Part shown: one piece after another, positions 27,611 through 51,874 of the stretch
Position numbering within the stretch: the stretch's first letter is position 1
Layout: every line of letters starts with the position of its first letter
Source: an uncultured Staphylococcaceae bacterium
GTDB lineage: Bacteria; Bacillota_I; Bacilli_A; RFN20; CAG-826
NCBI GenBank assembly: GCA_964371305.1
Contig: CAYJLA010000002.1
Coordinates: 6,236 to 70,235, forward strand
DNA: 64,000 nt
Reading direction: 5' to 3'
The notes under the pieces: generated by a model
What the model was told of the DNA's origin: nothing
Seen by the model: the letters and a program-made list of their open reading frames with translations, nothing else
Database searches by the model: none
Made by a program: the position numbers and the translations under genes

Positions 27611-29095
27611 ATGAAGAAAACAAAACTATTAGTTTGTAGTGCTTTAGTTGCATTACTCGGCGTCACAGTTTTTTCAAGCAGTGTTACAAATAAGAACGTT
27701 ATTGGAACGCATGCTGCTGTTAATTCATCATTTGTAGAAGGTGAAGATAGAAAATTAGATAGCTTAACAGGAAGAGAAAATTTAATTGATGAAACTTTAT
27801 TTGATTACCAAGCAATTGAAGGTGCACACACATGGCAAAATAAAGATGTATTGAGAGTCAATATGAGCAATATTGCAGCAACTCAAAGAATTTATGGTGT
27901 AGCACCTAAATTAAATAGAGTAGGTAGATTAGGTGTGCTTGCCATAGAACTCAAGAGTTCAAATGGAGTAACTTTGTCTGATTTAAATATTAAATACAAT
28001 CGTGGAACATCACCAACTTCATATACTAATGTTACATTAAATTTTGCAGATGCAGTTGATGGTAATGGTAATCCATTGCCTGAAATAACAAATCAATGGC
28101 AAACAATATATATCGATGCAGTTGATTCATTAGATGAAAGTTATTCTGACATTGCTTCATTCATTGGCGATGGAGGTGGTGGATACAGTGATTTCAGTAT
28201 TCTACCAACTCAAGGTACAACTGGAAATCTAGACATCAATTACATTTGGTATGAAATAGAACAAGGATTGGGTTATTACAGCACCGGTGATGTTTATCAA
28301 ATTGACAACTTTGATGGTAGAACAAGTGTTAGTGATGCAACAGGATCAAATGTTTATTGGAGAGATTCATGGGCTGGCGGTACTATCGCTCCTAATAGAG
28401 TTATTTTATACAATACATCTTACTCAGTAGCTTCTCTTACTAATGGTAACGCTGACAATAAATATGGTAACTTAGCAATTAATGCATTTATTGGTAGTAT
28501 TTCAGAAGTAACGCCAATTTATACAACAAACAATGTAGATTTCTTTGAAGGTACTGCTGTTGCGTGGGCTAATTTAAGAGATCATAATAATGTGGAATTA
28601 GGAAGTATTTCTACTTCAGGTTTTGCGACCAAAGTTATTAATTTTGCAAATAGTGGCATTGAATATAGTAATATGGTCGGCATAAAAATTACTGGTTCTA
28701 GCGGTGTAGCAATTAATGAAATTTATTTTACTGGAGAAAACACTGCGGCTAAAGGAATTAATGATTTAGTTGATTATTTATTGCTTGAAGACACAGATGG
28801 CCAATGTAACACAAAGTTCAATACAGCTAAAACAATGTACTTAGGATTAAGTGAAACCGATAAAACTACATTTACAACTGGAACTGATAGAATTGCAGAA
28901 GCCAGAGTTCGTTATGAAGCTTGGGCAACTCATTTAGGACAAAGTGCATACGATGCATCTGAAGTCTTATTAGGTGCACAAGGTGAAATGAATACTAATA
29001 ACATAATTGCGGCTATTTCAATAATTAGTTTGGTAGGTACTTCAAGCATAATATTATTTGTATTCTTGAATAAAAGAAAAACTGTAAAAAGATAA
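27611..29095 (+). CDS. secreted surface protein, paralogue family A, C-terminal TM anchor + KRKTVKR tail
   Basis: Sec signal peptide; shares EDRKLD, APKLN..G..GVL.I.L.S and IDNFDGRTSVS blocks with 29256..31226; C-terminal hydrophobic helix plus basic tail. Confidence 0.6.
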   Translation: MKKTKLLVCSALVALLGVTVFSSSVTNKNVIGTHAAVNSSFVEGEDRKLDSLTGRENLIDETLFDYQAIEGAHTWQNKDVLRVNMSNIAATQRIYGVAPKLNRVGRLGVLAIELKSSNGVTLSDLNIKYNRGTSPTSYTNVTLNFADAVDGNGNPLPEITNQWQTIYIDAVDSLDESYSDIASFIGDGGGGYSDFSILPTQGTTGNLDINYIWYEIEQGLGYYSTGDVYQIDNFDGRTSVSDATGSNVYWRDSWAGGTIAPNRVILYNTSYSVASLTNGNADNKYGNLAINAFIGSISEVTPIYTTNNVDFFEGTAVAWANLRDHNNVELGSISTSGFATKVINFANSGIEYSNMVGIKITGSSGVAINEIYFTGENTAAKGINDLVDYLLLEDTDGQCNTKFNTAKTMYLGLSETDKTTFTTGTDRIAEARVRYEAWATHLGQSAYDASEVLLGAQGEMNTNNIIAAISIISLVGTSSIILFVFLNKRKTVKR

Positions 29096-29255: not shown

Positions 29256-31226
29256 ATGAAGAAATTACTTGTAGGTTTAGGTCTTCTAGGTACATTAGTT
29301 ATTTCGGCAGTGAGTTTCCCTCTAGAAACAAATGCAGCTGGGAAAGAATTTGATGTAGATGAAGATAGGATGCTTGATGATTTCAAGCATGAAGTGCTTG
29401 AAGATACTTCACAGTTTAGTTTAGTTGATGCAACTGGAAACTATGATTACAATAGCGCTAGTTATTTAGATGTTAATATAAACAATAACAACAATACTGT
29501 TAACACAGCTATTTATAAAGCTGCCCCAAAATTAAACACAATGGGAAAAACAGGCGTATTGTCGATTACATTACGTAGTATTGATAGTAGTGTTTCACTG
29601 GCGGATTTAGATTTACATTATAGAGGTGCTAGTGATAAGGACAGCGACACTCTTGCAGTTAATCTTGCTGAAGCGCGTGACCAAGATAACGCAGCGCTAG
29701 ATGAAATTACAGCGAGTTGGACTACTATACACATATCCCCAATGAATTCAGTTGAAGATCAGGCTTATATAAATGGGTATGTTGGTTTGCACCTAGTCGC
29801 TAAACCTAATTTAATTGGCAAATTATCAATTAAAGAAATGTGGTATGCCGAACAGCAAGGAAGTCCATTCAATGCATCTAGTGGAGTTTATCCAATTGAT
29901 AATTTTTCTGGAAGAGAGACTGTTTCTCAAACAAATAGCGAATATCCAAATACATGGTGGAGATTTTCTCATACAGGTGTACTAGCCTCAAACGGCTTAA
30001 CACTTAATGGTGGTACTTATACGGTTGCAAGTGATTCACGTGGTAATGGCGATAATGCACACAGCAATATAGTATTAACGCTCAAAGGCGGTGAAATGGA
30101 TGAGATAAAATTCGTTTATGGTGATGTAACAAATGGATATACATATTCAAAACCATATGCATGGAATGAATTAAAAAATAATGCAGGATCTACATATCCT
30201 AGTATCACTACTCAAGAATTTTATGGTTATATAATTAATTTTGATGCTACTGGTATTGAATCAAACATTGCAGGCATAATGTTAACTGGAACAGGTGTTA
30301 CAATAAAAAGTATATTCTTCACAAGTGAAGCTCCATTAATTCCGGCTACAGAATTTCCTAGAATGAACGCTGATAGTAGGAGAGTGTTTGAAGATTTTAA
30401 TCGCGATATAGTTGGAGCAACAACAACATATATACCAAATACTCCTACAGCAACCGCAGGCGATTTATATTACATTTTATCTTATAGTGGAAGTGAATCT
30501 TTAGCTATGGAAGATAATGCATTAGTATTTGATGGAACAAAATCTCCAGGAACTACAATAAACTATAAATCAAGTGGTAGTCGAAATAATAATGGTACTT
30601 ATCCGTTTGTTGTTTTTAAGATGAAGGGTACTGATGGTGCTAGCTTGAAAAACTTTAGTTTTACAACAATTGATGATAGTGGTAATACAACTGAGCCAAA
30701 ACTATTTAATGAGTTATATAGTGATGTGCAATACAATATACCTGATTTTGACGCGATAGATTATCCATACACCACTTCAGATGGCTGGATGTATATAATC
30801 ATTAATCTAGAATATAGTGGATTCCCAGCAGGATGTCATGGTTTTGACTTCTATTACAGTGGCCCTGGTAAGCTTTATATAGATGAAACATTATATATGA
30901 CAAGAGCAACCGCTGCAGTTGAATACACTGATGTAGTAAGTAGTCTAGAGACACAAAGTGACGTAACTTTGCCAGAAATTGAATATAGTTTAGTTGATCA
31001 ATTGACTATTGGCGAAACTGTTGTAATTAATCCAACATTCACAGATGACATGACTAGTAGTGAAGAAATCACAACTGTCATAAAAGTCAAACATAATGGT
31101 GAATACATTGATTTGACTTCAGAAAATTCTTTTGTTGTTGAACAAGGTAGTTATATAATCATAATCATTGCGATCGATAATAACAATAATACAAATATCT
31201 TGAAACTTTATAGGGAGGTAGCATAA
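29256..31226 (+). CDS. secreted surface protein, paralogue family A (no C-terminal anchor)
   Basis: Signal peptide ...ETNA/AGK; conserved blocks shared with 27611 and 37153 proteins (DNFSGRETVS, EDFNRDIVG). Confidence 0.6.
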   Translation: MKKLLVGLGLLGTLVISAVSFPLETNAAGKEFDVDEDRMLDDFKHEVLEDTSQFSLVDATGNYDYNSASYLDVNINNNNNTVNTAIYKAAPKLNTMGKTGVLSITLRSIDSSVSLADLDLHYRGASDKDSDTLAVNLAEARDQDNAALDEITASWTTIHISPMNSVEDQAYINGYVGLHLVAKPNLIGKLSIKEMWYAEQQGSPFNASSGVYPIDNFSGRETVSQTNSEYPNTWWRFSHTGVLASNGLTLNGGTYTVASDSRGNGDNAHSNIVLTLKGGEMDEIKFVYGDVTNGYTYSKPYAWNELKNNAGSTYPSITTQEFYGYIINFDATGIESNIAGIMLTGTGVTIKSIFFTSEAPLIPATEFPRMNADSRRVFEDFNRDIVGATTTYIPNTPTATAGDLYYILSYSGSESLAMEDNALVFDGTKSPGTTINYKSSGSRNNNGTYPFVVFKMKGTDGASLKNFSFTTIDDSGNTTEPKLFNELYSDVQYNIPDFDAIDYPYTTSDGWMYIIINLEYSGFPAGCHGFDFYYSGPGKLYIDETLYMTRATAAVEYTDVVSSLETQSDVTLPEIEYSLVDQLTIGETVVINPTFTDDMTSSEEITTVIKVKHNGEYIDLTSENSFVVEQGSYIIIIIAIDNNNNTNILKLYREVA

Positions 31227-37152: not shown

Positions 37153-40062
37153 ATGAAAAAAATTACATTTGGACTAATCAGTTTACTTGCAACCCTTGGG
37201 TTAGTGTTCGCAACTAACGCAGGTGATGCTACAAAAGTAAGTGCAAGAGATTATGATGAAAATTATGACGTTTGGTTAGATGATCTTTCCGGAGACACCC
37301 CTGCAGGAACATTAACAAACGGTGCATTTAATAAAGTGCCATATTTAACAGCACAGGCAAGCGGAGATTTTGGAAAAGATCCAAACGAAGCGCTTTATAA
37401 AGCGGGTATTGGTAGTTTTACTTTTTCGAATTCAAAAGAGGTAACTTTATCAATGAGAATTGGAAATGAAGGAGCACTCAGTTTAGGTGATTTATCTATT
37501 GCGATTAGAGGTGGCGATTCATATGTTCCATATGCTGTTACTTTTGATACTTTATTTACTACTGATGGCGAGTCTATGCCAGCACTTACAAATGAATTTC
37601 AAGATTATACTATAAGTTGGACAACTTCACTTGAAGGAACAGAAATGTACACAGTTGCATCAACTGGAGAACTTTCAACTGTTAATGTTTTATCATCTGA
37701 AATGGTTGGCATTCATATATATTATTCAGGTGAAGGAGATATGACTACACCGTTAGAAATTTCTTCAATTAAATCTGGATCTACTGTAGTCGATGACTTT
37801 AATAGAACCGATGTTAGTTCAACAGTTGGTTGGTCTGGATGGTGGAGAGGTAGTGTTGGAACTATAGTTAATAAGAGTATTCATTTAAATCAAAATGATT
37901 CACAATATGATGTATATGATGATTCAAAGACTGACTTTAGTGGAGTAGTTGTTCTCATAAGTGGTGATAGTACAGGCGTATCTTTTGCAGTACGCAGCAA
38001 CAGTGCGTATTCTTCGTATATCCCATACCTAGATATAAAAGATTACGATAATAATACTGTTGAATCACTAAGTAATGAAAAACAAGCTATTTATATAGAT
38101 GCAGAAAATACATTTTCAATTGTAGATGACATTACAGGGGTTAGCATAAGAGCTGCTACACCAAATGTACATATTTGGGGTATATTTCTTTCAAACAACG
38201 AATCTACACCTGCTGATGTTTCATGGCCGTCACTTGATCTAAAAAACGTGACGTATTTTGATGATTTTAACCGCGCAGATAGAAATAAATTTGAGACGTC
38301 TTACGATGCTTCTCAAGCAGCCTTGACTGATGAAGATAAACAACACGGAGTCGATTATAATATCGCATACGAAGGTGCTGACTATGTTAGTTTAATAGAC
38401 GAAGCTCTTGTTTTTAAACCAAATAATGGTTCTCTTGTAAACTATGGACATGGTGTAAAAACTGATGTTTCTAATAATGATTATTTAGTATTTTCAGTTA
38501 AAACTACTGAAAACGCTACACTAGATGGTTTTAGAGTTAGTATTGGTAACGATATACTATGGGCAAATCAATTTATGTCTGGTAATCAGTTACCAGCAGC
38601 ACAAATTGGGCAAGTAGGATATCCATTTATTGATGGTGAATTTACATGGTTGATTATTGATTTACATCAACATGAAATTAGTCCAAGTAATACAATGGTT
38701 TTCTATTATGAATCAGGTGTAGATGTAACTGGTAATATAGTCATCGACCAAATATTCTATACTAATGCAAAAGACGACTTAAACACCACATCAAGAGTTG
38801 GAATTGAAGAAACTACATATAGTCTTGATGCAGCTAAAGATTTAGGCACTTTTACTAGCACTTTAATAAAAGATACTGTACTTGTCGAAATGGATATGAC
38901 AATTACAGGAACAACTAAAATCGATGGACTAAGTTTAGTCGTTGGCGGAACGGAACTTACTTTTGCTAGTGGACTAATTAACCAATTTGGTGAAGTTATT
39001 CCTACTGAATATAGCGATGAAACATTCAAAGTTACAGTAGACTTATTAGCAAACGGAATCACTTTAGTAGATGGTGCTTCAGTAGTTTTGAAAAATAATA
39101 CAGTTGTCGCAGGAGGAACACTTACTGTTGCAGCAACTTTAAAAGATAGAGTTTTACATAATGTAAGAAATATCATTGCTTCTACAAGCGTTGATACATC
39201 TGGTTATGTTTATGGTGGAGGAATTGATCTTACACAATTGCAATCAAATCTTATTGAATTTAATGTAACTTCCACAAGTGATGTTGTTGATGGTATTTCA
39301 TCATTGAGATTAGAGTTTGTGACCGGAGAATTCTTATTCTTAAATACAGGAACTGTTTATAATCAATATGGAGAATTAATTTCAACAAATTTAATAGCTG
39401 GAGAAAATTCAATTGTTATTGATTTAACGGCTTCAGGAATAGATGTAAATTCAATTAAAGGAGCAGGACATTTTCATGCTGGTGGATGGGGACCTGCTGC
39501 TACCCTTACAGTAGAAATTAATGAAGTTAGTTATAGAAACCTATCTCAAGATGTTACAGAGTTAGAACAGTTTAAAAAATATGATATTGTTGCACCAACT
39601 GTTTCTATGTTTGAAGTCAGCGGATCTACAACCGTAGGAAGTGAATTAACAGTTACTTATAATATAAATGATGATGTTAGTCTTGAAGAAAACCTTACTG
39701 TCAAAGTAATAGTATCTTATGGTAGTGGTATTACATACATGGAAGAAAACATAACTTCAACAATGAAGTTTACTCCAACTGTAGCGCAGGACTATACATT
39801 TACAATTACTGTTACAGATGAAGCGGGCAACGAAGTTGAAGTAGATAAAGTTATTAATATAACTGAAGCAACTACAGAACCTCCAATCACTTCTGAACCT
39901 AGTGTCGGTGAATCAACTACAATCGGTTCAACATCAACTGGCGGCGGGAATAATGAACCAGTTGATAATACAATGTTAATCGTTATACTTTCTTCAGTTG
40001 GTGGGGTTATCCTACTAGGTGGCGTTATATTCTTTGTGATTAACAAAAGAAGTAAAAAGTAA
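37153..40062 (+). CDS. large secreted surface protein (969 aa), paralogue family A modules, C-terminal TM anchor + KRSKK tail
   Basis: Signal peptide ...ATNA/GDA; repeated DDFNRTDVSS / DDFNRADRNKFE modules; Thr/Ser/Pro stalk then hydrophobic helix and basic tail. Confidence 0.6.
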   Translation: MKKITFGLISLLATLGLVFATNAGDATKVSARDYDENYDVWLDDLSGDTPAGTLTNGAFNKVPYLTAQASGDFGKDPNEALYKAGIGSFTFSNSKEVTLSMRIGNEGALSLGDLSIAIRGGDSYVPYAVTFDTLFTTDGESMPALTNEFQDYTISWTTSLEGTEMYTVASTGELSTVNVLSSEMVGIHIYYSGEGDMTTPLEISSIKSGSTVVDDFNRTDVSSTVGWSGWWRGSVGTIVNKSIHLNQNDSQYDVYDDSKTDFSGVVVLISGDSTGVSFAVRSNSAYSSYIPYLDIKDYDNNTVESLSNEKQAIYIDAENTFSIVDDITGVSIRAATPNVHIWGIFLSNNESTPADVSWPSLDLKNVTYFDDFNRADRNKFETSYDASQAALTDEDKQHGVDYNIAYEGADYVSLIDEALVFKPNNGSLVNYGHGVKTDVSNNDYLVFSVKTTENATLDGFRVSIGNDILWANQFMSGNQLPAAQIGQVGYPFIDGEFTWLIIDLHQHEISPSNTMVFYYESGVDVTGNIVIDQIFYTNAKDDLNTTSRVGIEETTYSLDAAKDLGTFTSTLIKDTVLVEMDMTITGTTKIDGLSLVVGGTELTFASGLINQFGEVIPTEYSDETFKVTVDLLANGITLVDGASVVLKNNTVVAGGTLTVAATLKDRVLHNVRNIIASTSVDTSGYVYGGGIDLTQLQSNLIEFNVTSTSDVVDGISSLRLEFVTGEFLFLNTGTVYNQYGELISTNLIAGENSIVIDLTASGIDVNSIKGAGHFHAGGWGPAATLTVEINEVSYRNLSQDVTELEQFKKYDIVAPTVSMFEVSGSTTVGSELTVTYNINDDVSLEENLTVKVIVSYGSGITYMEENITSTMKFTPTVAQDYTFTITVTDEAGNEVEVDKVINITEATTEPPITSEPSVGESTTIGSTSTGGGNNEPVDNTMLIVILSSVGGVILLGGVIFFVINKRSKK

Positions 40063-40166: not shown

Positions 40167-41381
40167 ATGTATAAAATGATTGTAATTGATGATGAAATCA
40201 TCGTTAGAAGAGGTATTAAAGAAACTATCGATTGGTCTAAACATAATGTTGAAATAATTGGAGATGCTTCAAACGGCCAGGAGGGATATGAACTTATTAA
40301 AAAGTTGAATCCTGATATTGTTATTACTGATGTGAAAATGCCGATTTTGACAGGAACTGAACTTGCAACTAGGCTAAAAGACGATGGTTTTAATGGAATA
40401 GTTATTATTATTTCTGGCTATAAAGATTTTGAATATGCAAAAAGCGCTCTTAGTGCAGGTGTGTTTCAGTATTTACTCAAGCCATTTGCTAATCGTGAAT
40501 TAGAAGAGTGTGTAAACGATGCAATCAATAAACTAAAAGAACGTATGAAAACTGAAAATATATTAGATGTTTTTAGTAGTTCAAAGATAGACTTGAATAG
40601 TAAATTGTTTAGAGACATTGTTAGAAAAAATTATGCTAATATCGATGATATAAGAAATATGTTTGTAATTTCCAATATTGATTTCTTTGATGAATACTGT
40701 ATCGTGATTGGTGTTTTGGATAAAATTGACGAACATTTTTCAAGTGATAGAAAAATGATAAAGTGTATAGATGATGCATTTAATGATCATGAAAATCAAT
40801 ATTTGTTAGGAGTATATCATAACAGAGTCGTCATGGTTACAAACCTTGAACACGATCTAATTATTAAACTTCTTGAGAACGCTTTTAAGCATTTTGAGTT
40901 AATAACTAGCGAATTTACATTTTCTTTCGGTATGAGTGATTCATCCAATACCTTTAGTAACGCTAATGAGTTGTATGAACAAGCAAAAAATATTGCAGAA
41001 AATAAATTATTTACTACTTCTAATTCAATATTAGATAATAGTGGTGAAACAAAAAAATATAAAAAGAATACAGTAGAAATTCTTAAAATAATTCAAACAA
41101 GATACAGTGAAAATCTCACTGTTAAAATTGTTGCTGAAGAAGTTTTGATTAGTGAATCATCGTTAATGCATTTACTAAAGGATGATTTAGGAATGACTTT
41201 CAATGATATTCTAACAACACACAGAATCAATGAGGCCAAAAAACTCCTCCTAAGTTCAAAATATAGAATAAATGAAGTCGCAAGATTAGTAGGATATAGT
41301 GATGATAAATATTTTACTGCTCTATTTAAGAAAAAAACAGGCTTAACTCCATCAAAATTTATATTAGCGAATGAACAATAA
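40167..41381 (+). CDS. two-component response regulator, REC + AraC-type HTH (YesN-like)
   Basis: IVIDDE...ITDVKMP phospho-acceptor region; C-terminal AraC HTH (GYSDDKYFTALFKKKTGLTPSKF). Confidence 0.8.
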   Translation: MYKMIVIDDEIIVRRGIKETIDWSKHNVEIIGDASNGQEGYELIKKLNPDIVITDVKMPILTGTELATRLKDDGFNGIVIIISGYKDFEYAKSALSAGVFQYLLKPFANRELEECVNDAINKLKERMKTENILDVFSSSKIDLNSKLFRDIVRKNYANIDDIRNMFVISNIDFFDEYCIVIGVLDKIDEHFSSDRKMIKCIDDAFNDHENQYLLGVYHNRVVMVTNLEHDLIIKLLENAFKHFELITSEFTFSFGMSDSSNTFSNANELYEQAKNIAENKLFTTSNSILDNSGETKKYKKNTVEILKIIQTRYSENLTVKIVAEEVLISESSLMHLLKDDLGMTFNDILTTHRINEAKKLLLSSKYRINEVARLVGYSDDKYFTALFKKKTGLTPSKFILANEQ

Positions 41382-43104
41382 TAAAAGTAAGAAATCAATC
41401 TCTGTTGTGCTATTTACATCTATTAGCGTTCTTTTTGTCTCAATATTTATTATAGTTGTTACAAGTGTATTTATAACTGTGAATATAGCTACTGGTAATT
41501 ATAGTAAGAATAATTTTACTACATCTGCAAACAAGGTTGATGATACATTATCCGAAATCTTATATTCAATAACAGCTACTCATGTTTTAACTTTCAATGA
41601 CGAAGGAATTTCTGAATTTTCATTAGTCGATGACAATAGTAAGCAAGTATATTTTGAAAATTTATATAAAAATGGGTCAATTAATAACGAGAATTATGTT
41701 GGTATGAGTTTGTACTTTGAAGATAAAACTTACATATCAAGTCAAGCCGTCCCCTTTCTTGGTAAAACCGAAATAGATGCAGTTAACAATAGTAGCAACT
41801 ACATGGTTTATGTAAGTACTATTTCTTCCAGTGATGAATCTATGATAGTTTTTGGTAAAAAAGTTCAATACTCATTAGCATCTGAATCAGTAGGGGTTGC
41901 ATTTTACTATTTAAAAGAGAGTGTTATATTAAAAGTTTTGGATTTGATTAATGTTGAAGGCTCCGAAACATTTTTGGTCACTAATGATGCTTATGGTGTT
42001 GCACATCCTAATGAGGAACTTAATGGAATTTACTTATACAATTTTGAATTTGCTAGGTATTTGGGCTCCAACTCAGTCGAGGAGTTTGGGAATTATAATG
42101 GTAAATATTCTATTTTTTCGTTAAGTTCTATGCACAAAACTAATTATGCATATGATTTAGACTTTACAATCGTGTCCGCAACTCCGTTTTACTCTGTGTA
42201 TGGAAGCATCATCATTACGTATTTGATTGTAGGTATTATCGCGCTTATTTCACTCGCACTAAGCATTACATTTGGTATTTTAATTTCTAAAAAAATAATT
42301 AATCCATTGATCAGTCTTTCACACAAGGTAGGTGAATATTCACCTTTACAAGACACAATATTAACTAAAGTAGTAGATAACAAGAACGAAGTATACATTT
42401 TAGAAGAATCTTATGATTTAATGATGGATAGAATTAGAAATTTAATGAACCAATCAATTCGTGATATGGAAACGAAAAGAAATTTAGAACTAGAAACTCT
42501 ACAAATGCAAATTAATCCGCACTTTTTATATAACACATTAGATGCAATTGCATGGATGGCCAAATTTAAAGATGAAAAAGACATCGAACAATTAGTAATT
42601 GAATTATCAAAGTTTTATAGAGTTTCGCTTCATAAAGGAGCAAAGTTTATTAAAGTAAGTGAAGAAATGGAAATTATAGACCATTTTATGAAAATAGAGC
42701 TGGTAAGATTTCCTAATAAATTTACGTATGATTTAAATATAGATGAAGATGTAAAAAATGCTCAAACTCTTAAACTTATATTACAACCTATAGTAGAAAA
42801 CGCAATCAAGCATGGATTAGCTTCACTTAATAGAATTGGACATATTGATATAACTGTCTCAAGAAGTAACGATAATATCATATTCATTATTAAAGATGAT
42901 GGTGTAGGTTTTGATTTTGATGATTCTTCGTTTTTGGATAGGAAAAATGATCCAAGCTATCATGGTGGCTATGGATTGTATAATGTACAAGAAAGAATAC
43001 ATTTAGAGTATGGTTCGCAATATGGCATTGAAGTTGATTCAATAAAAGATCGTGGAACAAAGGTTATAGTTAAAATACCATTTATATATCATTCTGTTGA
43101 TTAA
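41371..43104 (+). CDS. sensor histidine kinase (YesM-like; 2 TM + extracellular sensor + HAMP + His_kinase/HATPase)
   Basis: INPHFLYNTLDAIAW H-box, N/G boxes (IVENAIKHG, DDGVGF, GYGLYNV); overlaps RR stop by 11 nt. Confidence 0.8.
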   Translation: MNNNKSKKSISVVLFTSISVLFVSIFIIVVTSVFITVNIATGNYSKNNFTTSANKVDDTLSEILYSITATHVLTFNDEGISEFSLVDDNSKQVYFENLYKNGSINNENYVGMSLYFEDKTYISSQAVPFLGKTEIDAVNNSSNYMVYVSTISSSDESMIVFGKKVQYSLASESVGVAFYYLKESVILKVLDLINVEGSETFLVTNDAYGVAHPNEELNGIYLYNFEFARYLGSNSVEEFGNYNGKYSIFSLSSMHKTNYAYDLDFTIVSATPFYSVYGSIIITYLIVGIIALISLALSITFGILISKKIINPLISLSHKVGEYSPLQDTILTKVVDNKNEVYILEESYDLMMDRIRNLMNQSIRDMETKRNLELETLQMQINPHFLYNTLDAIAWMAKFKDEKDIEQLVIELSKFYRVSLHKGAKFIKVSEEMEIIDHFMKIELVRFPNKFTYDLNIDEDVKNAQTLKLILQPIVENAIKHGLASLNRIGHIDITVSRSNDNIIFIIKDDGVGFDFDDSSFLDRKNDPSYHGGYGLYNVQERIHLEYGSQYGIEVDSIKDRGTKVIVKIPFIYHSVD

Positions 43105-44092
43105 TTTTGCTGTGTAATTCAATTAGTGGTTTTTTGATAAAATATGCCATTTTAGCAGATATAATAATAGTAAACGCCATAATAATAATGTCAACAGAGA
43201 GAAAAATTATTATTAACATATTTGTATTGTAGTACTTGTTCTGTTCAGGAATTATTACAGTAAAATCAATAGCGTTAGTTAAGTTTATTTTTGAATATAA
43301 TTTTCCATTTAGATTACTAATCATTTTTTCACTATATGGATATGAAACATCATACATATCAATATCTTCACTAACTAAATATAATATTGATGTATTGTCT
43401 GAAATATATGTATTTCCGTTTTCAAAAAAAGTGTATTCAGATATGTCGAAAATCGTTGAGTATAAATAATTGGTGTCGTAGTCTGCAACGATATATCCTA
43501 TAACATTTTCATTGCCATCATATACCTTTAAAAATAGAGAAAGTAATCCCAATGAATCGTTATAAGGTTGCATTAAATAGTTGTTGGCAATAGCTTTATT
43601 TCTAATAAATATAGTTGATGTATCTGATGAACTTATAAAAGAAGAAAATCGCACAACTTGTTGTAGTTCAACTAGAGTTGCTGGGCCGCCAATTGAACTA
43701 CTTGAAACTATTCTATTATCGGTGGTGTATAAAGAGATTCCAAGTAAAGAATTATAGGTTACAGAAATCACATTTATATAATCTTGCGTTTCTTGATATG
43801 AACTAGATCCACTAATATAGTTTTTTATAATTTGGTTATTAGAAACTCCTTGTAAAGTAGAATATATAATTTGATTGTGCAGCTGAAATGAATTCGAAAT
43901 AACTTGAGTTTCACTCATAGTATAACTATCAAAATCTCTCATATAATAAAAATGCATGTTTACAATTGTAACTATTGTGATCAAGACAACAAAAAAAGAA
44001 ACAGCACTAATAAACAATGTTTTAACTTGAAAGCTTAATCTTTTAAACATAAGTACATTTAAAGTATAACAAAATGAAGTCAAAAACAACAA
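43082..44092 (-). CDS. sensor-domain-only paralogue of the adjacent YesM-like kinase (truncated after HAMP start; possible gene remnant)
   Basis: TM1 + extracytoplasmic domain + TM2 + FIKKPLIELHSKI aligns with kinase residues DFTIV...ISKKIINPLISLSHKV; no H-box/HATPase; 3' end overlaps kinase gene by 23 nt convergently. Confidence 0.45.
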   Translation of the reverse strand: MLFLTSFCYTLNVLMFKRLSFQVKTLFISAVSFFVVLITIVTIVNMHFYYMRDFDSYTMSETQVISNSFQLHNQIIYSTLQGVSNNQIIKNYISGSSSYQETQDYINVISVTYNSLLGISLYTTDNRIVSSSSIGGPATLVELQQVVRFSSFISSSDTSTIFIRNKAIANNYLMQPYNDSLGLLSLFLKVYDGNENVIGYIVADYDTNYLYSTIFDISEYTFFENGNTYISDNTSILYLVSEDIDMYDVSYPYSEKMISNLNGKLYSKINLTNAIDFTVIIPEQNKYYNTNMLIIIFLSVDIIIMAFTIIISAKMAYFIKKPLIELHSKINQQNDI

Positions 44093-44138: not shown

Positions 44139-44154
44139 TGCAGTATTGTCTACC
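44139..44154 (+). promoter_or_regulatory. cis-element half-site copy (TGCAGTATTGTCTACC) upstream of sugar-binding protein gene, followed by extended -10 TGtTATAAT
   Basis: matches GCAGTTTTGTCTACC core of copy 1. Confidence 0.4.
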
Positions 44155-44224
44155 AAAAAACACTTTTTATAGTATTAAAAAGGCTATTTTGGGTTGTTAT
44201 AATACAAATAGGTAGGTAAATTAT

Positions 44225-45637
44225 ATGAAAAAATTAATTAAATCATTATTAATGTGTGGAGCAATGGCCAGCGTAATTGCGTTTACAACTGGTTGTAGCG
44301 AAGATGATGGAGTTGTTCAAGTAAGAATAGGGATGTGGCCAGCTGCACAATTAACACAAGACATAGCAATGTTTAACAATTGGAAAACTGAGTTCGAAAG
44401 AGATAATCCTGGATATGAAATTATTGCTGATAACTATGAATATGATCCTAGTACAGTAGTGGCCAAAGCTCAATCTAAAACGCTTCCTACGGTGTTTCAA
44501 ACATGGTTTACTGAACCAGAAATGTTAATAAACTCAAGATATATAAGAGATATTACTCCTCAACTTAATGAATTAGGTTGGCTTGATAAAATGGATGTAA
44601 AAATGAAAGACATTTTATCAAGAGATGGAAAAACTTACGGTGTACCAAGAGACGGTTATGGACTTGGTATGGTTATGAACTTAGAACAACTGGAGTTTTA
44701 TGGAATTTTAGAAGACCTAGATGGTGATGGAAAAATTGATATACATGATGAAGATGGTCAGCCGCTTTATCCTACGACTTTTGAAGAATTAAGGCAATTA
44801 AGTGTCGATATAGATAGTGCAAGTGATGGAATGGTCAAAGGTTCACTTATTTTATCCTCAAATAAAAATGGAGGATGGCAATTTTCTAATATAGCATGGA
44901 ATTTTGGTGCTGAATTACAAATAAAAAATAGTGAAGGTAAATATGTTGGCAATCTTGCAAGTGATGAATCAGTTGATGCATTAGAATATATACAAGATCT
45001 TGCCCAAAATGACTTATTACTTGATAATACCGCAGTCGTTTATAATGATTGGACAAGGTTTATTTCCGGACAAGTTGCAACTGCTTTTGTGGGAAATGAT
45101 GTTGTAGCAAATGCTGTTACGCAAGGTGGCGTAGATTTAGACAAGATAGCATTTGTACCAATGCCAGCTGGTCCAGATTCACAAAATGCATTGTTTGGTG
45201 GAACTCCTTATGTTTTTGCTAATAATGCTACTGATGAAGAAGTTATGGGCGCCTTAAAGTTTCTTGAATATATGGGTAGATCTCCAGAAGACTCTGATAT
45301 TGCAGAAGAGGCATTAGAAGAAGGAGCACAACTTTCACAAGCAAAGTCAATACCTATTTTGCCTTCAATTAAGCCATGGACAAACGATGAATATCTAACC
45401 TTAACTAAAAGTATTGAAGATAAGTACGTTAATGTAGAGATGGATTATTTTAAAGATTTCTATGATTCAATCTATACAATTAGACACGACGAAGAACCTT
45501 ATTTCACACAGGCAATGTATTCGTTGTTAGATAATTGTATACAAGAAGTTCTAGATGATCCATATTCAGCTAATGCTAAAACATTATTGGAAACTGCAAA
45601 CAGTCAATTTAACAACCAATATATGTCCAATTTATAA
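44225..45637 (+). CDS. sugar ABC transporter substrate-binding lipoprotein (family 1 SBP)
   Basis: AFTTGCS lipobox; 470 aa extracellular solute-binding protein pattern. Confidence 0.8.
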   Translation: MKKLIKSLLMCGAMASVIAFTTGCSEDDGVVQVRIGMWPAAQLTQDIAMFNNWKTEFERDNPGYEIIADNYEYDPSTVVAKAQSKTLPTVFQTWFTEPEMLINSRYIRDITPQLNELGWLDKMDVKMKDILSRDGKTYGVPRDGYGLGMVMNLEQLEFYGILEDLDGDGKIDIHDEDGQPLYPTTFEELRQLSVDIDSASDGMVKGSLILSSNKNGGWQFSNIAWNFGAELQIKNSEGKYVGNLASDESVDALEYIQDLAQNDLLLDNTAVVYNDWTRFISGQVATAFVGNDVVANAVTQGGVDLDKIAFVPMPAGPDSQNALFGGTPYVFANNATDEEVMGALKFLEYMGRSPEDSDIAEEALEEGAQLSQAKSIPILPSIKPWTNDEYLTLTKSIEDKYVNVEMDYFKDFYDSIYTIRHDEEPYFTQAMYSLLDNCIQEVLDDPYSANAKTLLETANSQFNNQYMSNL

Positions 45638-45649
45638 AAAGGAAATATA

Positions 45650-46609
45650 ATGAAAACAAACTCTCTTACTACTACTAAGACAGTTAAAAACAAGAGGCTT
45701 AAAACGTTGCTTGTTAAGAACTTATCTGGCTGGGCATTAATGTTGCCTGGCTTGATTTTGTTTGTTTTTTTTGTTTGGGGACCGTTAGCTGACAATATCT
45801 TGACATCCTTTTACTCAACAATTGGGTTTGAAAGAGTTGATTTTGTGGGTGTTGCTCAGTATGTACGGGTGTTCGAAGATCCAGAGTTTATAAACGCTTT
45901 AACAAATACCTTTGAATATCTTGGTTGGTCACTATTGATTGGATTTATTATACCTATTTTTCTTGGTTTACTTTTGTCAGAAGTTATTCATTTAAAGGGT
46001 TTCTTTAGGATAGCAATATATTTGCCAGCTGTTTTAAGCGGTGTCGCAACAGCAATACTTTGGGCATATATATTTGATCCAAATGACGGAGGTATGTTGA
46101 ATACAATACTTCAGTCGCTGGGATTACCAACATTAAAATGGACAGATGATTCCGATTTAGTAATTCCTTTGATTGTATTAACAATGACTTGGAAGGGTGC
46201 GGGGAGTACAGCACTTATATATTTAGCGAGTATGCAGTCGATTAATTCGAATTTATATGAAGCGGTCCGCATTGATGGGGCTAACGCGTTTCAAAGAATT
46301 AAAAATATTACTTTACCAAGTATTCTTCCAACTATTTCAACGTTATTTATTCTTCAAGTAATATCTATAATGCAAGTTTTCTATGAGCCTTTATTAATTG
46401 CAAAGGGATCACAAGCTTCAATGACATTGCTTTTACTTGGTTATAACTATGCGTTTGATAGCAAATACTCGGGTAGCGGAGTTGGAGGTTATGGTTTTTC
46501 TACGACTGGCCAATCATCGGCAGTAGCAGTCATTTTAGCTTTAATTATTCTTGGTCTTACAGCTGTATATTTTATAGTTCAACATTTCGTTAAGAAGAGG
46601 TATCAATAA
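45650..46609 (+). CDS. carbohydrate ABC transporter permease (MalF/UgpA-like)
   Basis: 6 TM, EAA-like loop region; operon position. Confidence 0.8.
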   Translation: MKTNSLTTTKTVKNKRLKTLLVKNLSGWALMLPGLILFVFFVWGPLADNILTSFYSTIGFERVDFVGVAQYVRVFEDPEFINALTNTFEYLGWSLLIGFIIPIFLGLLLSEVIHLKGFFRIAIYLPAVLSGVATAILWAYIFDPNDGGMLNTILQSLGLPTLKWTDDSDLVIPLIVLTMTWKGAGSTALIYLASMQSINSNLYEAVRIDGANAFQRIKNITLPSILPTISTLFILQVISIMQVFYEPLLIAKGSQASMTLLLLGYNYAFDSKYSGSGVGGYGFSTTGQSSAVAVILALIILGLTAVYFIVQHFVKKRYQ

Positions 46610-47532
46610 TGAAAATGTATAACAAATTATTGAGTAAGTTCAAGAACAAAGATAAAGAAACATTATTAACCAAAAAAGGTGGCGTTTTAACTTTTATTGA
46701 TTATAAACGTCCACTTAATAAATTTATATATATAATCATGATACTTATTCTTGTTAGTGTCGCTTTAACAGCGTTACTTCCAATATTTATATTACTTCTA
46801 TCTTCTTATAAAGGTCCGTCAGAGTTATATGCAATACCTTTTAATTTATTTCCACAAGCTTTTGATATAACAAAAATGTTTACTGTTTGGCAGGAAGTTC
46901 AATTTGAAAAGTATTTGTTCAATACTTTAATCGTTTGTTTTGGAGCTGCATTCGTTGGCGTAATAGTAAATGGATTGCTTGCATATTCAGTATCTGTGGT
47001 AAAGCCATGGGGACATAAATTTTTCTACATTTTAATTATGGCTTCGTATATGATACCTGGCATACTTTCAATTGTGCCATTGTATTCATCAATAGTTAAC
47101 TTATCGCTTACAAATACATATATACCTTTATGGTTTGTAATGGGAGCAAATGCATTTTATTTTATATTATTTAAAAATCATTTTGATTCAATTCCGGGTG
47201 CTCTTATAGAAGCTGCAAGGGTTGATGGTGCTAGTAACATAAGAATATTTTTTAGTGTAATTATTCCAATGTCTAAATCTATTATGTTACTTGTTGCAAT
47301 TTTTTCAATTACAACTGCCTGGAATGATTTCTTGCTGCCATATTTAGTACTACAAGATTCGAATATGCAAACAATTATGGTGTTGCTATATCAAAAATCT
47401 GGTGATGCACAATTTTCACCAGATAAATTATTAATGTTATCACTTATCTCAATTATACCTCAAATAATTATCTTTTTTGTGTTTCAAAAACAGATAGTAG
47501 GTAGTGCAATGAGTAGTGGTTTAAAGGAGTAA
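46609..47532 (+). CDS. carbohydrate ABC transporter permease (MalG/UgpE-like)
   Basis: 6 TM, EAARVDGAS EAA motif. Confidence 0.8.
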   Translation: MKMYNKLLSKFKNKDKETLLTKKGGVLTFIDYKRPLNKFIYIIMILILVSVALTALLPIFILLLSSYKGPSELYAIPFNLFPQAFDITKMFTVWQEVQFEKYLFNTLIVCFGAAFVGVIVNGLLAYSVSVVKPWGHKFFYILIMASYMIPGILSIVPLYSSIVNLSLTNTYIPLWFVMGANAFYFILFKNHFDSIPGALIEAARVDGASNIRIFFSVIIPMSKSIMLLVAIFSITTAWNDFLLPYLVLQDSNMQTIMVLLYQKSGDAQFSPDKLLMLSLISIIPQIIIFFVFQKQIVGSAMSSGLKE

Positions 47533-47536
47533 AATT

Positions 47537-49795
47537 ATGGGCAAAATTGCAACAAAATATTTAAAGGTTCACCCTTATAAAATTATTGAAGAAGGTTTTC
47601 ATGAAGAAAGAAATAGAGTGAGTGAGTCCTTGTTCTCACTAAGTAATGAATTCATGGGAATAAGAGGGAGTTTTGATGAAGGCAGCAGTTTGAAAACTTT
47701 ACGAGGAAGTTATTTTAATGGTATATACGACTACCCTTTAACGCCATCTCAAAAATCATATAAAGGGATTGTTGAAAAGACACATTTTATGGTTAACTCA
47801 GTAGACTATTTTAAAGTAAAGATACTAGCTAATGATGAAGTATTAGATTTAGGAAAAATAAATTTTGAAAACTTCTATAGAGAGCTCGATTTATTAAGCG
47901 GTTTATTGACTAGAAAGTTAACTTGGATTTTGCTAAATGGAACAAAGATCGATATTAAGTTCGAAAGATTTCTATCTTTAAAAAAATGTCATAGCGCATT
48001 TCAAAGAATAAGCTTGGTTTCAGATAAAAAAGTCGATATTTGCATTGATTTTTATCTTGATAGCAATGTTCTTCATTGGGGAAAAGATGTGTATCATACA
48101 ATGATTTCAAGCGAAAACACTTGTAAAATGATGTCTTTAAAAACAATGACTAAAACATCAAAACAAACTATCGTTTCATCATGTAAAATTGATACAAATA
48201 TAAATGTACATGAATTGGTTAATGAGGATTTATTGGTTGGTAAAAGATATAAGTTTACTCTTGAAAAAAACGAGCAGATATTTACAAGGTATGTCTCCAA
48301 TTATGTCGCTAGAAATGAAGAAGAATTATTGGTAAATATAGATTCATTAGCTATCAAGAATTTAAATGAAATTTCAAAGTCTGGTTTCGAAGAAGAATTA
48401 AATAACAATATAAAATATTTCGCTAATTTATATGAGCGTTCAGACATTGTCATTGAAGGTGATGATGAAGATCAACAAGGAGTTAGATATTGTATTTTTA
48501 TGCTTGAAACCACATATCATGGTTTTAATGAACTAGACAACATAGGTGCTAAAGGTTTGACGGGAGAAGCATATAGTGGTCATTGTTTTTGGGACTCTGA
48601 AGCGGTATGTTTCCCATATTATTTATTCAACAACAAAAAAGCGGCAAAGAACCTTTTAATGTTTAGGTATAATACTCTTGAAAAAGCTAAAGAGAGAGCA
48701 AAGCAACTTGATTGCGGCGGTGCATGTTATCCTATTGCAACATTAAATGGCGAAGAAGCATGTAATTTATGGCAACATGCATCAACTCAGTTTCAACCTA
48801 CAACTGCTGTGGCATATGCTATATACCATTATATGAATACAACGAAAGATAAAGCTTTTTTAAGAAACTATGGCCTTGAAATGTTATTAGAATGTTCAAA
48901 GTTTTTATTAGATAGAGGTCAATGGGATCAAAAAGGTACATCGTTTGGGTTTTATGGGGTAATGGGACCAGATGAATTTAAAGTAATGGTTAATCACAAT
49001 ACATATACAAATTATATGGCTCAATTTACTTTTCAATATACTTTGAAATGCATTAATAGATCTTCCTTAAAGGATAGTCTATTAAAAAAATGTGGCTTAG
49101 ATGCGAACTTCTTAGATAAAATATCAAAAGCTGCGAAAAGCATGAAAATATTATTTAATTCTAGGACGGGATTATATGAGCAAAATGAAGGTTTTTACAA
49201 TTTACCTCATATTGATATTCATGCAATTCCGCAAACTGATTTCCCACTATATTCTAATTGGAGTTATGACAGAATTTATCGTGGTGATATGATTAAACAA
49301 CCAGATGTTTTGATGTTTATGTTTTTATTCATGTCTAAGTTTTCAGATAAAGTAAAATTAGCTAATTACGATTACTACGAACCAAGATGCATACATGAAT
49401 CTTCACTATCTCCATGTATTCACTCAATATTTGCGTGCGACTTAAAAAAAGAAAATGAAGCCCTAGATTTCTTTGGATTTGCATCTAGATTAGATTTAGA
49501 TGATTATAATAGAAATACAAATGAAGGATTACATCTAACTTCTATATCAGGCGCATGGCTTAATATAGTGTATGGATTTGGCGGTCTTAGAAGTGACTCT
49601 GGAATAGTTTCAATTAACCCATCACTTCCAGCAAGATGGGACTCATATTCATTTAAATTTGTGTATAAAAGAGCTAAAATAACAGTCAAAGTAACTAAAC
49701 ATAAACTTTATATTTCGAATAATGGACAAGATGAATACATTTATATAGATGGCAAAAAGCTTTTAATTACTAAATATGTTGAAATAGATAGATAA
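47537..49795 (+). CDS. glycoside hydrolase family 65 disaccharide phosphorylase (maltose/kojibiose/nigerose/trehalose phosphorylase family)
   Basis: 752 aa; GH65 central-domain blocks incl. GEAYSGHCFWDSE; architecture N-domain + (alpha/alpha)6 barrel + C-domain. Confidence 0.8.
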   Translation: MGKIATKYLKVHPYKIIEEGFHEERNRVSESLFSLSNEFMGIRGSFDEGSSLKTLRGSYFNGIYDYPLTPSQKSYKGIVEKTHFMVNSVDYFKVKILANDEVLDLGKINFENFYRELDLLSGLLTRKLTWILLNGTKIDIKFERFLSLKKCHSAFQRISLVSDKKVDICIDFYLDSNVLHWGKDVYHTMISSENTCKMMSLKTMTKTSKQTIVSSCKIDTNINVHELVNEDLLVGKRYKFTLEKNEQIFTRYVSNYVARNEEELLVNIDSLAIKNLNEISKSGFEEELNNNIKYFANLYERSDIVIEGDDEDQQGVRYCIFMLETTYHGFNELDNIGAKGLTGEAYSGHCFWDSEAVCFPYYLFNNKKAAKNLLMFRYNTLEKAKERAKQLDCGGACYPIATLNGEEACNLWQHASTQFQPTTAVAYAIYHYMNTTKDKAFLRNYGLEMLLECSKFLLDRGQWDQKGTSFGFYGVMGPDEFKVMVNHNTYTNYMAQFTFQYTLKCINRSSLKDSLLKKCGLDANFLDKISKAAKSMKILFNSRTGLYEQNEGFYNLPHIDIHAIPQTDFPLYSNWSYDRIYRGDMIKQPDVLMFMFLFMSKFSDKVKLANYDYYEPRCIHESSLSPCIHSIFACDLKKENEALDFFGFASRLDLDDYNRNTNEGLHLTSISGAWLNIVYGFGGLRSDSGIVSINPSLPARWDSYSFKFVYKRAKITVKVTKHKLYISNNGQDEYIYIDGKKLLITKYVEIDR

Positions 49796-49801
49796 GTATT
49801 T

Positions 49802-51874
49802 ATGAAATTGATAAAGTTTGATTTTGATAAAGAAAAAATAAATTCTTATGGGAATATGTTTTTGATTGGAAATGGTCATATCGGCTATCGTGGTACTTTA
49901 GAGGAGTATCGTGCTAGCGAGTTTGTAGGTCTAAATATTGTTGGTCAATATGATCAATACGAAGATAAATGGAGAGAGTCTCTGAACGCCTTTAATCCTT
50001 TCTTTGTACATGTTAAAGGGGATCGATCTTTTTCAGTTCTTGAAAATAAACCTACTAACCATTGTATTGAACTAGATATCAAAAAAGCACTCTTTTCAAG
50101 ATTTAGTGAATATGATGAATTGATTATAACTTCCAAAAGGTTCGTTTCGCATAATAACCTGGATACTTTATGTATGATTTACACTGTTAAGGCTAAGACA
50201 TCTATCAGTTTAAAAGTTACTTTTGGCATAGATGAAAATGTATGGGACATAAATGGACCGCATTATAAATCAATTGAGCATGGTAGGAATGAAAACAAAT
50301 TAACAATTACAGGAATAAGCAATGAAGGAAAGTATATTAAAACAATTGCCGCATATAAATCAAATAAACCATTTAGGTATAAAAACGGTCTATTTGAAGT
50401 TGATACACAATTAAATAGAGATGAAGAAATCACTATAGAAGTGTGTTCACAAATTATCATCGGAGAAGAACAAAATAGACAAATCACATGCTATGATGAT
50501 GAGTTTGATGCGCATCATAAAATCATGGATAAAAAATGGGAAAACTGCGAAGTGGTAATTGATGGAGATGAAGAAAGTAGAAAATCTTTAGCGTATAGTA
50601 TTTATCACCTAATCATACTTGGAAACAATGAATATACTACGTCTATACCAGCAAGAGGTTTGTCGGGACAAACATATAAAGGTGCAATATTTTGGGATAC
50701 TGAAGTGTTTATGTTACCATTTTTTATACTGACAGATGTAAATATTGCGAAAAAACTAGTTCAATACAGAATAAATACTCTTCCAGGTGCATTAAGAAAG
50801 GCTAAAAGATTTAATTGTGATGGAGCCTTCTATGCCTGGGAATCTCAAGAAACAGGCGATGAAGCCTGCAGTTTGTATAATGTAAGTGATGCTATAAGTG
50901 GAAAACCTATTAGAACATACTTTGCAGATAAGCAAATTCATATATCAGGCGATGTTTCTTTTGGTATTATTCGTTATATTGAGGCTACTGGAGATTATAA
51001 CATTTTGTATGAGGGTGGTTTTGAAACACTCATTCAAATAACAAAGTTCTTTATCAATTATAGTGTATTTAATTCTCAAAAAGACAGATATGAAATACAC
51101 GACGTTATTGGTCCAGATGAATATCATGAAAGAGTAAATAATAACGCTTTTACAAATTACCTTGTTTACTTTACAACAAAGAAGATAATTGATTATGCTT
51201 CTTTACTCGAAGGAGACTATGTAAACAAAATCCTTAGTAAATGCGATTTAAATATAAATGCAGTTGAAAATTATGTTAATAAACTATATTTACCTCAGCC
51301 AAACAATGATAATGTAATTGAACAATTTGATGGCTATTTTGCATTAGAAGATGCCACTGTAAAAGAAGTAAGAAGTAGATTGAAAAACGAAAAGGAATAC
51401 TGGGGCGGAGAAAATGGCGTCGCCACTAAGACAAGAATAATAAAACAAGCAGACGTTATTGCGCTTATGGGAATGTTTCCGGAAGAATTCTCATACGAAG
51501 AATTAAAGGCGAACTACGACTTTTATGAACCATATACTGAACACGGATCTAGTCTTTCAGCATCTATGCATTCGTTGGTGGCGTGTAAAATTGGATATTT
51601 CGATGAAGCATATAAAATGTTTTTAAAATCTGCAACAGTTGACTTAGGCGAAAATCAAAAACAGTGGGCTGGAAGCATATACATTGGTGGCACACACCCT
51701 GCTAGCAATGGTGGTAGTTACTTATCTATTGTATATGGTTTTCTCGGAGTTAGGATAAATAGTAATAAGGTTACATTTGACCCACACTTACCTGATAATT
51801 TTAATGCTATTACATATTCTTATGTTGAGAATAACGTAAAAAAGACCCTAAAATTTATAAACAATAAACAATAA
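49802..51874 (+). CDS. glycoside hydrolase family 65 phosphorylase (second paralogue)
   Basis: 690 aa; GLSGQTYKGAIFWDTEVF block homologous to upstream GH65. Confidence 0.8.
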   Translation: MKLIKFDFDKEKINSYGNMFLIGNGHIGYRGTLEEYRASEFVGLNIVGQYDQYEDKWRESLNAFNPFFVHVKGDRSFSVLENKPTNHCIELDIKKALFSRFSEYDELIITSKRFVSHNNLDTLCMIYTVKAKTSISLKVTFGIDENVWDINGPHYKSIEHGRNENKLTITGISNEGKYIKTIAAYKSNKPFRYKNGLFEVDTQLNRDEEITIEVCSQIIIGEEQNRQITCYDDEFDAHHKIMDKKWENCEVVIDGDEESRKSLAYSIYHLIILGNNEYTTSIPARGLSGQTYKGAIFWDTEVFMLPFFILTDVNIAKKLVQYRINTLPGALRKAKRFNCDGAFYAWESQETGDEACSLYNVSDAISGKPIRTYFADKQIHISGDVSFGIIRYIEATGDYNILYEGGFETLIQITKFFINYSVFNSQKDRYEIHDVIGPDEYHERVNNNAFTNYLVYFTTKKIIDYASLLEGDYVNKILSKCDLNINAVENYVNKLYLPQPNNDNVIEQFDGYFALEDATVKEVRSRLKNEKEYWGGENGVATKTRIIKQADVIALMGMFPEEFSYEELKANYDFYEPYTEHGSSLSASMHSLVACKIGYFDEAYKMFLKSATVDLGENQKQWAGSIYIGGTHPASNGGSYLSIVYGFLGVRINSNKVTFDPHLPDNFNAITYSYVENNVKKTLKFINNKQ

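Follow-up and report, generated by a model that had tools for sequence, protein, structure and literature searches.

What does a gene that encodes the sensor part of a histidine kinase, and no catalytic part, do beside an intact kinase gene? This question is raised by a minus-strand open reading frame (ORF) in a 64,000-nucleotide stretch of DNA from an uncultured Staphylococcaceae bacterium (GenBank assembly GCA_964371305.1, contig CAYJLA010000002.1, positions 6,236 to 70,235; hereafter the window). The ORF converges on the kinase gene of a YesM/YesN two-component system (TCS). In a sequence-only reading it was taken to be either a decaying duplicate kinase, that is a pseudogene, or a stand-alone decoy or co-sensor. 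We found that the ORF is an intact, conserved gene. Its product probably acts on the partner kinase as a separate co-sensor or modulator, and would be an as yet uncharacterised third component of one subfamily of YesM/YesN systems for sugar utilisation.

Conservation of the kinase-less gene

An exhaustive HMMER search of 1.84 billion representative proteins found 96 proteins at E <= 1e-3, each the representative of a 50%-identity cluster. Nearly all of them are 300-345 aa long and align over their full length; kinases of ~560 aa are not among them. A word-indexed protein search was less sensitive: the single sequence found only itself, and an alignment of six syntenic sensor homologues (A1) found two proteins. 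Family members, from metagenome-assembled genomes (MAGs) of Bacilli, are named only 'hypothetical protein' or 'cache domain-containing protein' in the databases. When the window protein was compared by BLASTP with the products of related loci (designated by L numbers), it was 27% identical over the full length to that of L003, both being 322 aa long (E 5e-26), and matched that of L001 with E 1e-19. In the close pair L004 and L007, the ratio of nonsynonymous to synonymous substitution rates (dN/dS) of the sensor gene was 0.09 at dS 0.68; the ratio was 0.04 for the kinase gene and 0.07 for the regulator gene.

A decaying kinase duplicate, or an ORF arisen by chance, would account for a reading frame that stops just past the first HAMP helix, for the insignificant pairwise similarity to the adjacent kinase and for the missing of a clear ribosome-binding site. 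Against this, the 96 representatives have the same truncated architecture at similar length, the gene lies beside the kinase at every syntenic locus examined, and the orthologues share its length and end point. A pseudogene would be expected to be truncated or frameshifted against full-length orthologues, to evolve under relaxed selection and to be conserved only patchily, and none of these marks was seen. In addition, the predicted structure is of high confidence, the family-invariant residues are intact, and no remnant of a second kinase catalytic domain was found in the window. Because a conserved kinase-less architecture is joined with purifying selection, intact invariant residues and the lack of a catalytic remnant, the proposed pseudogene is refuted, and any explanation of this kind, including a chance ORF, is extremely improbable.

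In the ORF list the frame spans 43082..44092 and is counted as 336 aa from a TTG codon at 44092. Translation most likely starts at the ATG at 44050, not at the TTG, because the NCBI call begins there and because the homologues share the start motif MFx(K/R)L. Residues are numbered below from this methionine (M15 of the ORF).

Domain architecture and predicted structure

Hydropathy and profile alignment bear out the proposed order of a first transmembrane segment (TM1), an extracytoplasmic domain, a second transmembrane segment (TM2) and the first HAMP helix (Table 1). The claimed lack of an H-box and an ATPase domain also holds, since Pfam gave no match to His_kinase (PF06580), HATPase_c or HAMP in the window protein. 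His_kinase and HATPase_c were likewise without a match in all 68 family members scanned. A complete HAMP domain (first helix AS1, connector and second helix AS2, ~50 residues) was not found in the family, with Pfam HAMP matches in 0 of the 68 members, and NCBIfam gave no match for the sensor protein. What follows TM2 is a tail of 22-52 aa (median 26 in the 68 members), which in the window protein ends ...FIKKPLIELHSKINQQNDI before the stop codon. The tail motif P308-L309-x2-L312-x3-(M/I)316 is kept across the family. By hhalign, the tail pairs with INPLISLSHKV of the kinase, and the family profile matched the TM2-HAMP region of NarQ weakly (E 1e-3) and in the TM2/AS1 part only.

The extracytoplasmic part was not assigned by Pfam at threshold in the window protein: dCache_1 (PF02743) gave E 7e-4 and 19.7 bits versus a cut-off of 45. 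At the family level, 36 of the 68 members matched dCache_1 at E <= 0.01, the best at 5e-12. AlphaFold2 with the family alignment yielded a model of the window protein with a predicted local distance difference test score (pLDDT) of 95.1 and a predicted template modelling score (pTM) of 0.86; the pLDDT was 40 when no alignment was supplied. In this model a helix of residues 2-70 (TM1 and stalk) is followed by two alpha/beta modules and by a helix of residues 269-321 (TM2 and tail). Foldseek against the Protein Data Bank (PDB) retrieved dCache sensor domains from chemoreceptors and kinases, those of McpB/McpC, CtaA, KinD, PctA/B, Mlp24/37 and DctB, with E from 1e-11 to 1e-5. The model, the Foldseek matches and the TM positions agree in the dCache architecture, namely double PAS-like modules on a long N-terminal helix, located between two TM helices outside the membrane. 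The sensor protein is therefore a dCache protein by fold. Lacking the defining domains, it does not count as a histidine kinase, and it is neither a full HAMP protein nor a sugar-binding protein (SBP). One competing match, of residues 125-243 to the TIR domain of TLR10 (phmmer with the single sequence against the PDB, E 6e-4), was dismissed as spurious: the family profile did not return it, and it cannot be reconciled with the dCache fold, which is modelled with high confidence.

Conservation peaks at residues 71-205, including Y108, R150, Y158, Y163, K175, D190 and Y197, and from the dCache topology this region is taken to be the membrane-distal Cache module. Two further stretches are well conserved, the N-terminal MF motif and the tail motif P-L..L...M, and conservation is lowest at residues 206-268, the presumed proximal module. 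High distal and low proximal conservation is the usual pattern in ligand-binding dCache domains. The spacing of the conserved distal residues differs from that of the known amino-acid-sensor motif. The window copy retains all nearly invariant residues (Y108, R150, G168, G185, D190 and L309).

The G185/D190 pair (G....D) is conserved in 93-99% of the sensor family, and most YesM kinases without an accessory gene have it too. In the partner kinases the pair is replaced or unalignable, an observation that is alignment-dependent and conflicts with whole-domain scores of hidden Markov models (HMMs).

Relation to the sensor module of YesM-type kinases

The ORF had been described as a paralogue of the adjacent kinase that aligns with its N-terminal third. 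By BLASTP, the sensor ORF and the adjacent kinase are not significantly similar (E 0.42). Profile-to-profile comparison was significant and collinear: hhalign gave a probability of 95.9% and E 5.8e-9 for A1 against ten kinases (A2), and a probability of 98.1% and E 7.9e-14 over 295 columns when a 68-member sensor family alignment (A3) was compared with the ten kinases, family columns 30-354 running in parallel with kinase columns 7-327. The alignment spans TM1, the ectodomain, TM2 and the first HAMP helix, and covers the N-terminal third on the kinase side. The strings that had been quoted in support of the similarity are paired in the profile alignments (IDFTVIIPE with LDFTIVSATP, and FIKKPLIELHSKI with KKIINPLISLSHKV).

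Thus, an N-terminal TM1-sensor-TM2 module of the YesM type is recognised by hhalign as well as by cross-matches of the family HMM, which detects the first ~330 residues of 50+ other YesM kinases at 15-70 bits. The same HMM scores stand-alone members at 104-334 bits. Because stand-alone members reach at least 104 bits and kinase N-termini at most 70 bits, the stand-alone sensors are seen by their sequences to be an old separate clade derived from the YesM sensor module. The term paralogue therefore stands in the sense of remote homology to the YesM-type sensor module, but not in that of a recent copy of the neighbouring gene, to whose product the sensor protein is only ~15% identical.

We also considered the idea that the sensor of the partner kinase has degenerated and that the accessory protein is the true sensor. 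It was not supported by a generic HMM of YesM sensors, to which partner kinases matched no worse than accessory proteins did.

Linkage to YesM/YesN pairs

All of L001-L008, which were fetched through homologues of the kinase, carry a convergent gene for 314-341 aa directly after the kinase gene. L002 repeats L001 and L008 repeats L006, and these repeats are not counted below; L010 was reached from family members and not from kinases. A YesM/YesN pair adjoins the family member in 14 of 14 distinct contexts, in three arrangements. The sensor gene is convergent after the kinase gene in the window, L001, L003-L007 and L010-L013. It is co-directional after the kinase gene in L092, where it starts 4 nt past the kinase stop in the same gene order. 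In L009 and L091, it is the first gene of a sensor-regulator-kinase operon that is divergent from the transporter. Such conserved genetic linkage is expected of an auxiliary TCS component.

The association is restricted to a part of the YesM-type systems. Among 80 YesM-type loci listed from species-representative genomes, a stand-alone member is present in only three, those with the kinases closest to the window kinase. They belong to a Bacilli MAG, Cohnella fermenti CC-MHH1044 (L012) and Paenibacillus oryzae 1DrF-4 (L013); in the last, the sensor gene is the last gene of the opposing transporter operon. The accessory protein and the sensor half of the kinase diverge at a like pace, with mean pairwise identities of 0.195 and 0.216; the value is 0.50 for the cytoplasmic half of the kinase. 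Accessory distances correlate with kinase distances (r 0.64-0.72), which is consistent with co-inheritance as a unit.

In the window, the SBP gene (44225..45637) is separate from the sensor gene and heads the transporter operon; SBP, permease and glycoside hydrolase family 65 (GH65) genes likewise follow in L001-L004, L006 and L092. A sensor-like membrane protein could instead serve the ATP-binding cassette (ABC) transporter or its binding protein, or have a function unrelated to the TCS. The position of the sensor gene between the kinase gene and the SBP gene at most loci fits this idea, as does its co-directionality with the transporter genes in L013. However, L005 keeps the sensor gene beside the kinase gene although the downstream transporter and GH65 genes are absent, and in L009 and L091 the sensor gene heads the regulator-kinase operon and diverges from the transporter. 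Because it is present in all the contexts and arrangements, the kinase/regulator pair is the constant neighbour, and a function for the transporter or outside the TCS appears improbable.

Comparison of L092 with the window revealed an identical order of regulator, kinase, sensor, SBP, permease and GH65 genes, with the strand of the sensor gene flipped (L092 5001-5993, plus strand; window 43082-44050, minus strand). In L092 all of these genes lie on one strand; at some point in the evolution of the locus, therefore, a single gene was inverted. An invertible element was considered and rejected, as only weak AT-rich inverted matches flank the window sensor gene.

The convergent 3' overlap

The coordinates confirm that the sensor and kinase genes of the window overlap by 23 nt at their 3' ends. 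Seven of ten loci measured have overlaps of 4-29 nt, and the other three have gaps of 13, 17 and 250 nt, the last in L012. Convergent overlap is frequent. It is not obligatory, because some loci carry the sensor gene co-directionally.

Such an arrangement allows a role at the RNA level, in which convergent overlapping transcription would control the TCS genes through antisense RNA or transcriptional interference. The overlaps at the majority of the measured loci are in line with it, and no terminator-like site was found between the kinase and sensor genes. On the other hand, it is the protein sequence that is under purifying selection, the orientation varies (co-directional in L092, upstream in L009 and L091), the genes of L012 are well apart, and no flanking inverted repeats point to a switch. 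We regard an RNA-level role as the main function of the gene as very unlikely; antisense or interference control is a secondary effect at most.

Function of the sensor protein

As far as genomics reaches, linkage, conservation and fold support the earlier suggestion of a stand-alone decoy or co-sensor. A plausible course of events is as follows. The sensor module of a YesM-type kinase would have given rise to a separate gene for a membrane sensor, which has long been kept. The protein may bind a ligand, or a ligand-loaded partner, in the conserved pocket of the membrane-distal Cache module. It would associate in the membrane with the neighbouring kinase through the TM helices, the AS1-like tail and/or the homologous ectodomains, and would thereby shift the balance between the kinase and phosphatase activities that its partner has towards the AraC-type regulator. 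The regulator may in turn control the adjacent ABC transporter and GH65 genes and probably glycoside hydrolase family 28 (GH28) genes as well, possibly the upstream GH28 and carbohydrate esterase family 2 (CE2) genes. The effect may be that of an activating co-sensor or of a damping decoy (poison subunit).

One form of the co-sensor role, in a subfamily of the sugar-sensing YesM/YesN systems of Gram-positive bacteria, would be an obligate heteromeric receptor, in which the kinase-less TM-dCache-TM-AS1 copy provides or gates ligand recognition and signals to the kinase via TM/HAMP contacts. We offer this form tentatively, as a possibility that falls short of being probable. To our knowledge, a receptor and co-receptor made from paralogous sensor modules have not been described for bacterial histidine kinases.

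The decoy would be dominant-negative. The kinase-less sensor would heterodimerise with kinase monomers or titrate the ligand, and the incomplete DHp bundle would make it a built-in damper or feedback inhibitor. TM1, TM2 and AS1 are elements of the dimer interface in HAMP-containing kinases, and the sensor protein retains counterparts of all three that are homologous to the kinase's (TM1, TM2 and an AS1-like helix). Two gene layouts would fit induction of the sensor gene by its own TCS: in the window, the sensor gene and the presumed target operon diverge from a common control region of 174 bp, and in L013 the sensor gene is at the end of the transporter operon. In L009, L091 and L092, however, the sensor gene is co-directional with the regulator and kinase genes, suggesting stoichiometric co-production and not induced feedback. 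The conserved polar and aromatic residues of the distal module suggest a specific ligand function, though a decoy needs that too. On balance we consider a decoy unlikely, and prefer a co-sensor or modulator of the kinase.

Several points weigh against this preference. Expression, ligand binding and kinase contact of the putative co-sensor are presumed. Linkage and correlated divergence also follow from simple co-inheritance. The conservation is seen in distant relatives, with kinases 26-39% identical to that of the window, and not in sister strains, because the databases searched contain nothing closely related to the source genome; all homologues of the window kinase found there are at most 39% identical. 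With the generic YesM-sensor HMM, partner kinases score 32-90 bits and accessory proteins 1-80 bits. Finally, the window sensor gene has no recognisable Shine-Dalgarno or promoter-like site upstream, and such sites are also missing for several of the neighbouring genes.

Other features of the window

The features of the locus are listed in Table 1. Pfam identified His_kinase (PF06580, E 5e-25) and HATPase_c (E 7e-12) in the window kinase. The intergenic stretch between the sensor and SBP genes presumably holds the promoters of both directions and the target site of the regulator. Promoter-like sites occur at 44146-44203 on the plus strand, in a number not above that in shuffled sequence.

Table 1. 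Coordinates of the sensor gene, its protein segments and the adjoining genes in the window.
Feature	Position	Strand	Basis and remarks
YesN-type response regulator (receiver and AraC-type helix-turn-helix)	40167..41381	+	Pfam; precedes the kinase gene
Partner YesM-type kinase, 577 aa (TM1, sensor, TM2, HAMP-like linker, His_kinase PF06580, HATPase_c)	41371..43104	+	Pfam, homologues
Kinase-less sensor coding sequence	43082..44050	-	322 aa; ATG 44050, stop TAA 43082-43084; NCBI product identical; full-length match of the family HMM, 267 bits
Overlap of kinase and sensor 3' ends, 23 nt	43082..43104		ORF coordinates; kinase gene ends at 43104
Cytoplasmic tail (residues 298-322, 25 aa), like the first HAMP helix (AS1)	43085..43159	-	hhalign pairing, NarQ TM2-HAMP match
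TM2 (residues ~269-297)	43160..43246	-	Hydropathy; AlphaFold2 helix 269-321
Extracytoplasmic dCache sensor domain (residues ~35-268, ~235 aa)	43247..43948	-	AlphaFold2, Foldseek, dCache_1 family matches, conservation profile
TM1 (residues ~10-34)	43949..44023	-	Hydropathy; AlphaFold2 helix 2-70; preceded by the short basic cytoplasmic N-terminus MFKRLSFQVK
14 in-frame codons from TTG 44092	44051..44092	-	Probably untranslated; family HMM match starts at ORF residue 15
Intergenic stretch from the sensor gene to the divergent SBP/ABC/GH65 operon	44051..44224		Gene layout; 174 bp
Presumed regulated operon: sugar-binding protein, two ABC permeases, two GH65 enzymes	44225..51874	+	Pfam

The two GH65 genes are arranged in tandem on the plus strand, at 47537-49795 (752 aa) and 49802-51874 (690 aa), and the second gave no match to the GH65 C-terminal domain. 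In the related loci shown, one or more GH65 genes follow the permease genes.

A gene for a large protein (37153-40062, plus strand) lies directly upstream of the regulator gene, after an enzyme gene of the GH28/F5_F8-type-C kind. Its position is kept in L001 (2086-4629), L004 (2531-4678), L005 (2044-4713) and L006 (1324-3903), with products of 715-969 aa. Pfam gave no match above threshold for this protein, only weak ones to DUF7908 and Big_13. The window copy has hydrophobic segments at its N- and C-terminus, and the protein may bind or degrade glycans at the cell surface, as a so far uncharacterised member of the same regulon. Farther upstream, before the CE2 esterase and GH28-like genes, there are two ORFs of 494 and 656 aa (27611-29095 and 29256-31226, plus strand) with no Pfam match at E <= 1e-3. 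No tRNA or rRNA gene and no Rfam family at the gathering threshold were found in the window. Its G+C content is 28-37%, reaching up to ~0.37 with a strong A-over-T skew beyond 58 kb.

Significance and comparison with known systems

Few regulators of carbohydrate uptake in Firmicutes are as numerous as the YesM/YesN-type systems, yet their way of perceiving sugars is for the most part poorly understood. The conserved kinase-less sensor of one subfamily is a concrete, testable handle on this process, with Paenibacillus oryzae and Cohnella fermenti as cultured hosts, and could reveal how a kinase and its paralogous sensor-only partner integrate signals at the membrane. In annotation, 'hypothetical' or 'cache domain-containing' proteins of this kind should be counted as part of the TCS, not as truncated kinases or pseudogenes.

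The closest relative of the sensor protein is the sensor module of YesM-type kinases. The two share collinear homology over the whole length, the same topology and the P-L..L...M motif after TM2. The sensor protein differs in ending after AS1, lacking AS2, the DHp domain with its H-box and the ATPase domain.

Auxiliary membrane proteins of histidine kinases are known. YycH and YycI are membrane-anchored extracytoplasmic proteins that are encoded alongside the kinase WalK and control it via TM contacts. They have other folds and a single TM anchor, and are not homologous to the sensor domain of the kinase.

RocA offers another comparison. Its TM domains are sufficient for modulation of CovS/CsrS and necessary for binding (PMC6635533, PMC7028121). 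By analogy, the mode of action proposed here would resemble that of RocA, which is related to histidine kinases but non-catalytic, and acts by modulating a true kinase. RocA has a degenerate cytoplasmic kinase-like domain and a multi-TM N-terminus, and in group A Streptococcus its gene is located away from covRS. By contrast, the protein described here has a cytoplasmic part of ~25 residues, its bulk is an extracellular dCache domain, and its gene is always beside the kinase gene. The likeness would be functional, and no sequence kinship is claimed.

In sugar sensing, three-component systems based on SBPs are known. In CuaD-CuaS-CuaR, the SBP is the third component and binds the ectodomain of the kinase (PMC10384115), and XylFII-LytS-YesN and other such systems have been reviewed (PMC8050422). 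As in the present system, a kinase and an AraC/YesN-type regulator of a sugar ABC operon are encoded next to a third component, which is extracytoplasmic and binds the ligand there and putatively here. The third component of those systems has the periplasmic-binding-protein fold. Its counterpart in the present system has two TM segments and is homologous to the sensor of the kinase; its fold is that of dCache domains by Foldseek, not the SBP fold of the CuaD/XylFII type.

Stand-alone Cache proteins are stated to be unusual, as over 90% of Cache domains occur in fusion with signalling modules (PMC12889525). The sCache_heme proteins resemble the sensor protein in having a Cache domain without a fused output module (PMC12889525). 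They are single-Cache, haem-binding, mostly soluble/redox proteins of Gracilicutes, and the family described here is double-Cache, two-TM, tied to a TCS and found in Bacilli. The pneumococcal TCS07/YesMN system has a co-occurring hypothetical gene, SPD_0156 (PMC7075642), with no indication that it belongs to the same family. Full-text literature searches aimed at the sensor-only family or its arrangement found no description of either. In conclusion, auxiliary TCS components are of an already known kind, and the new part is a family of kinase-less sensors encoded beside YesM/YesN pairs.

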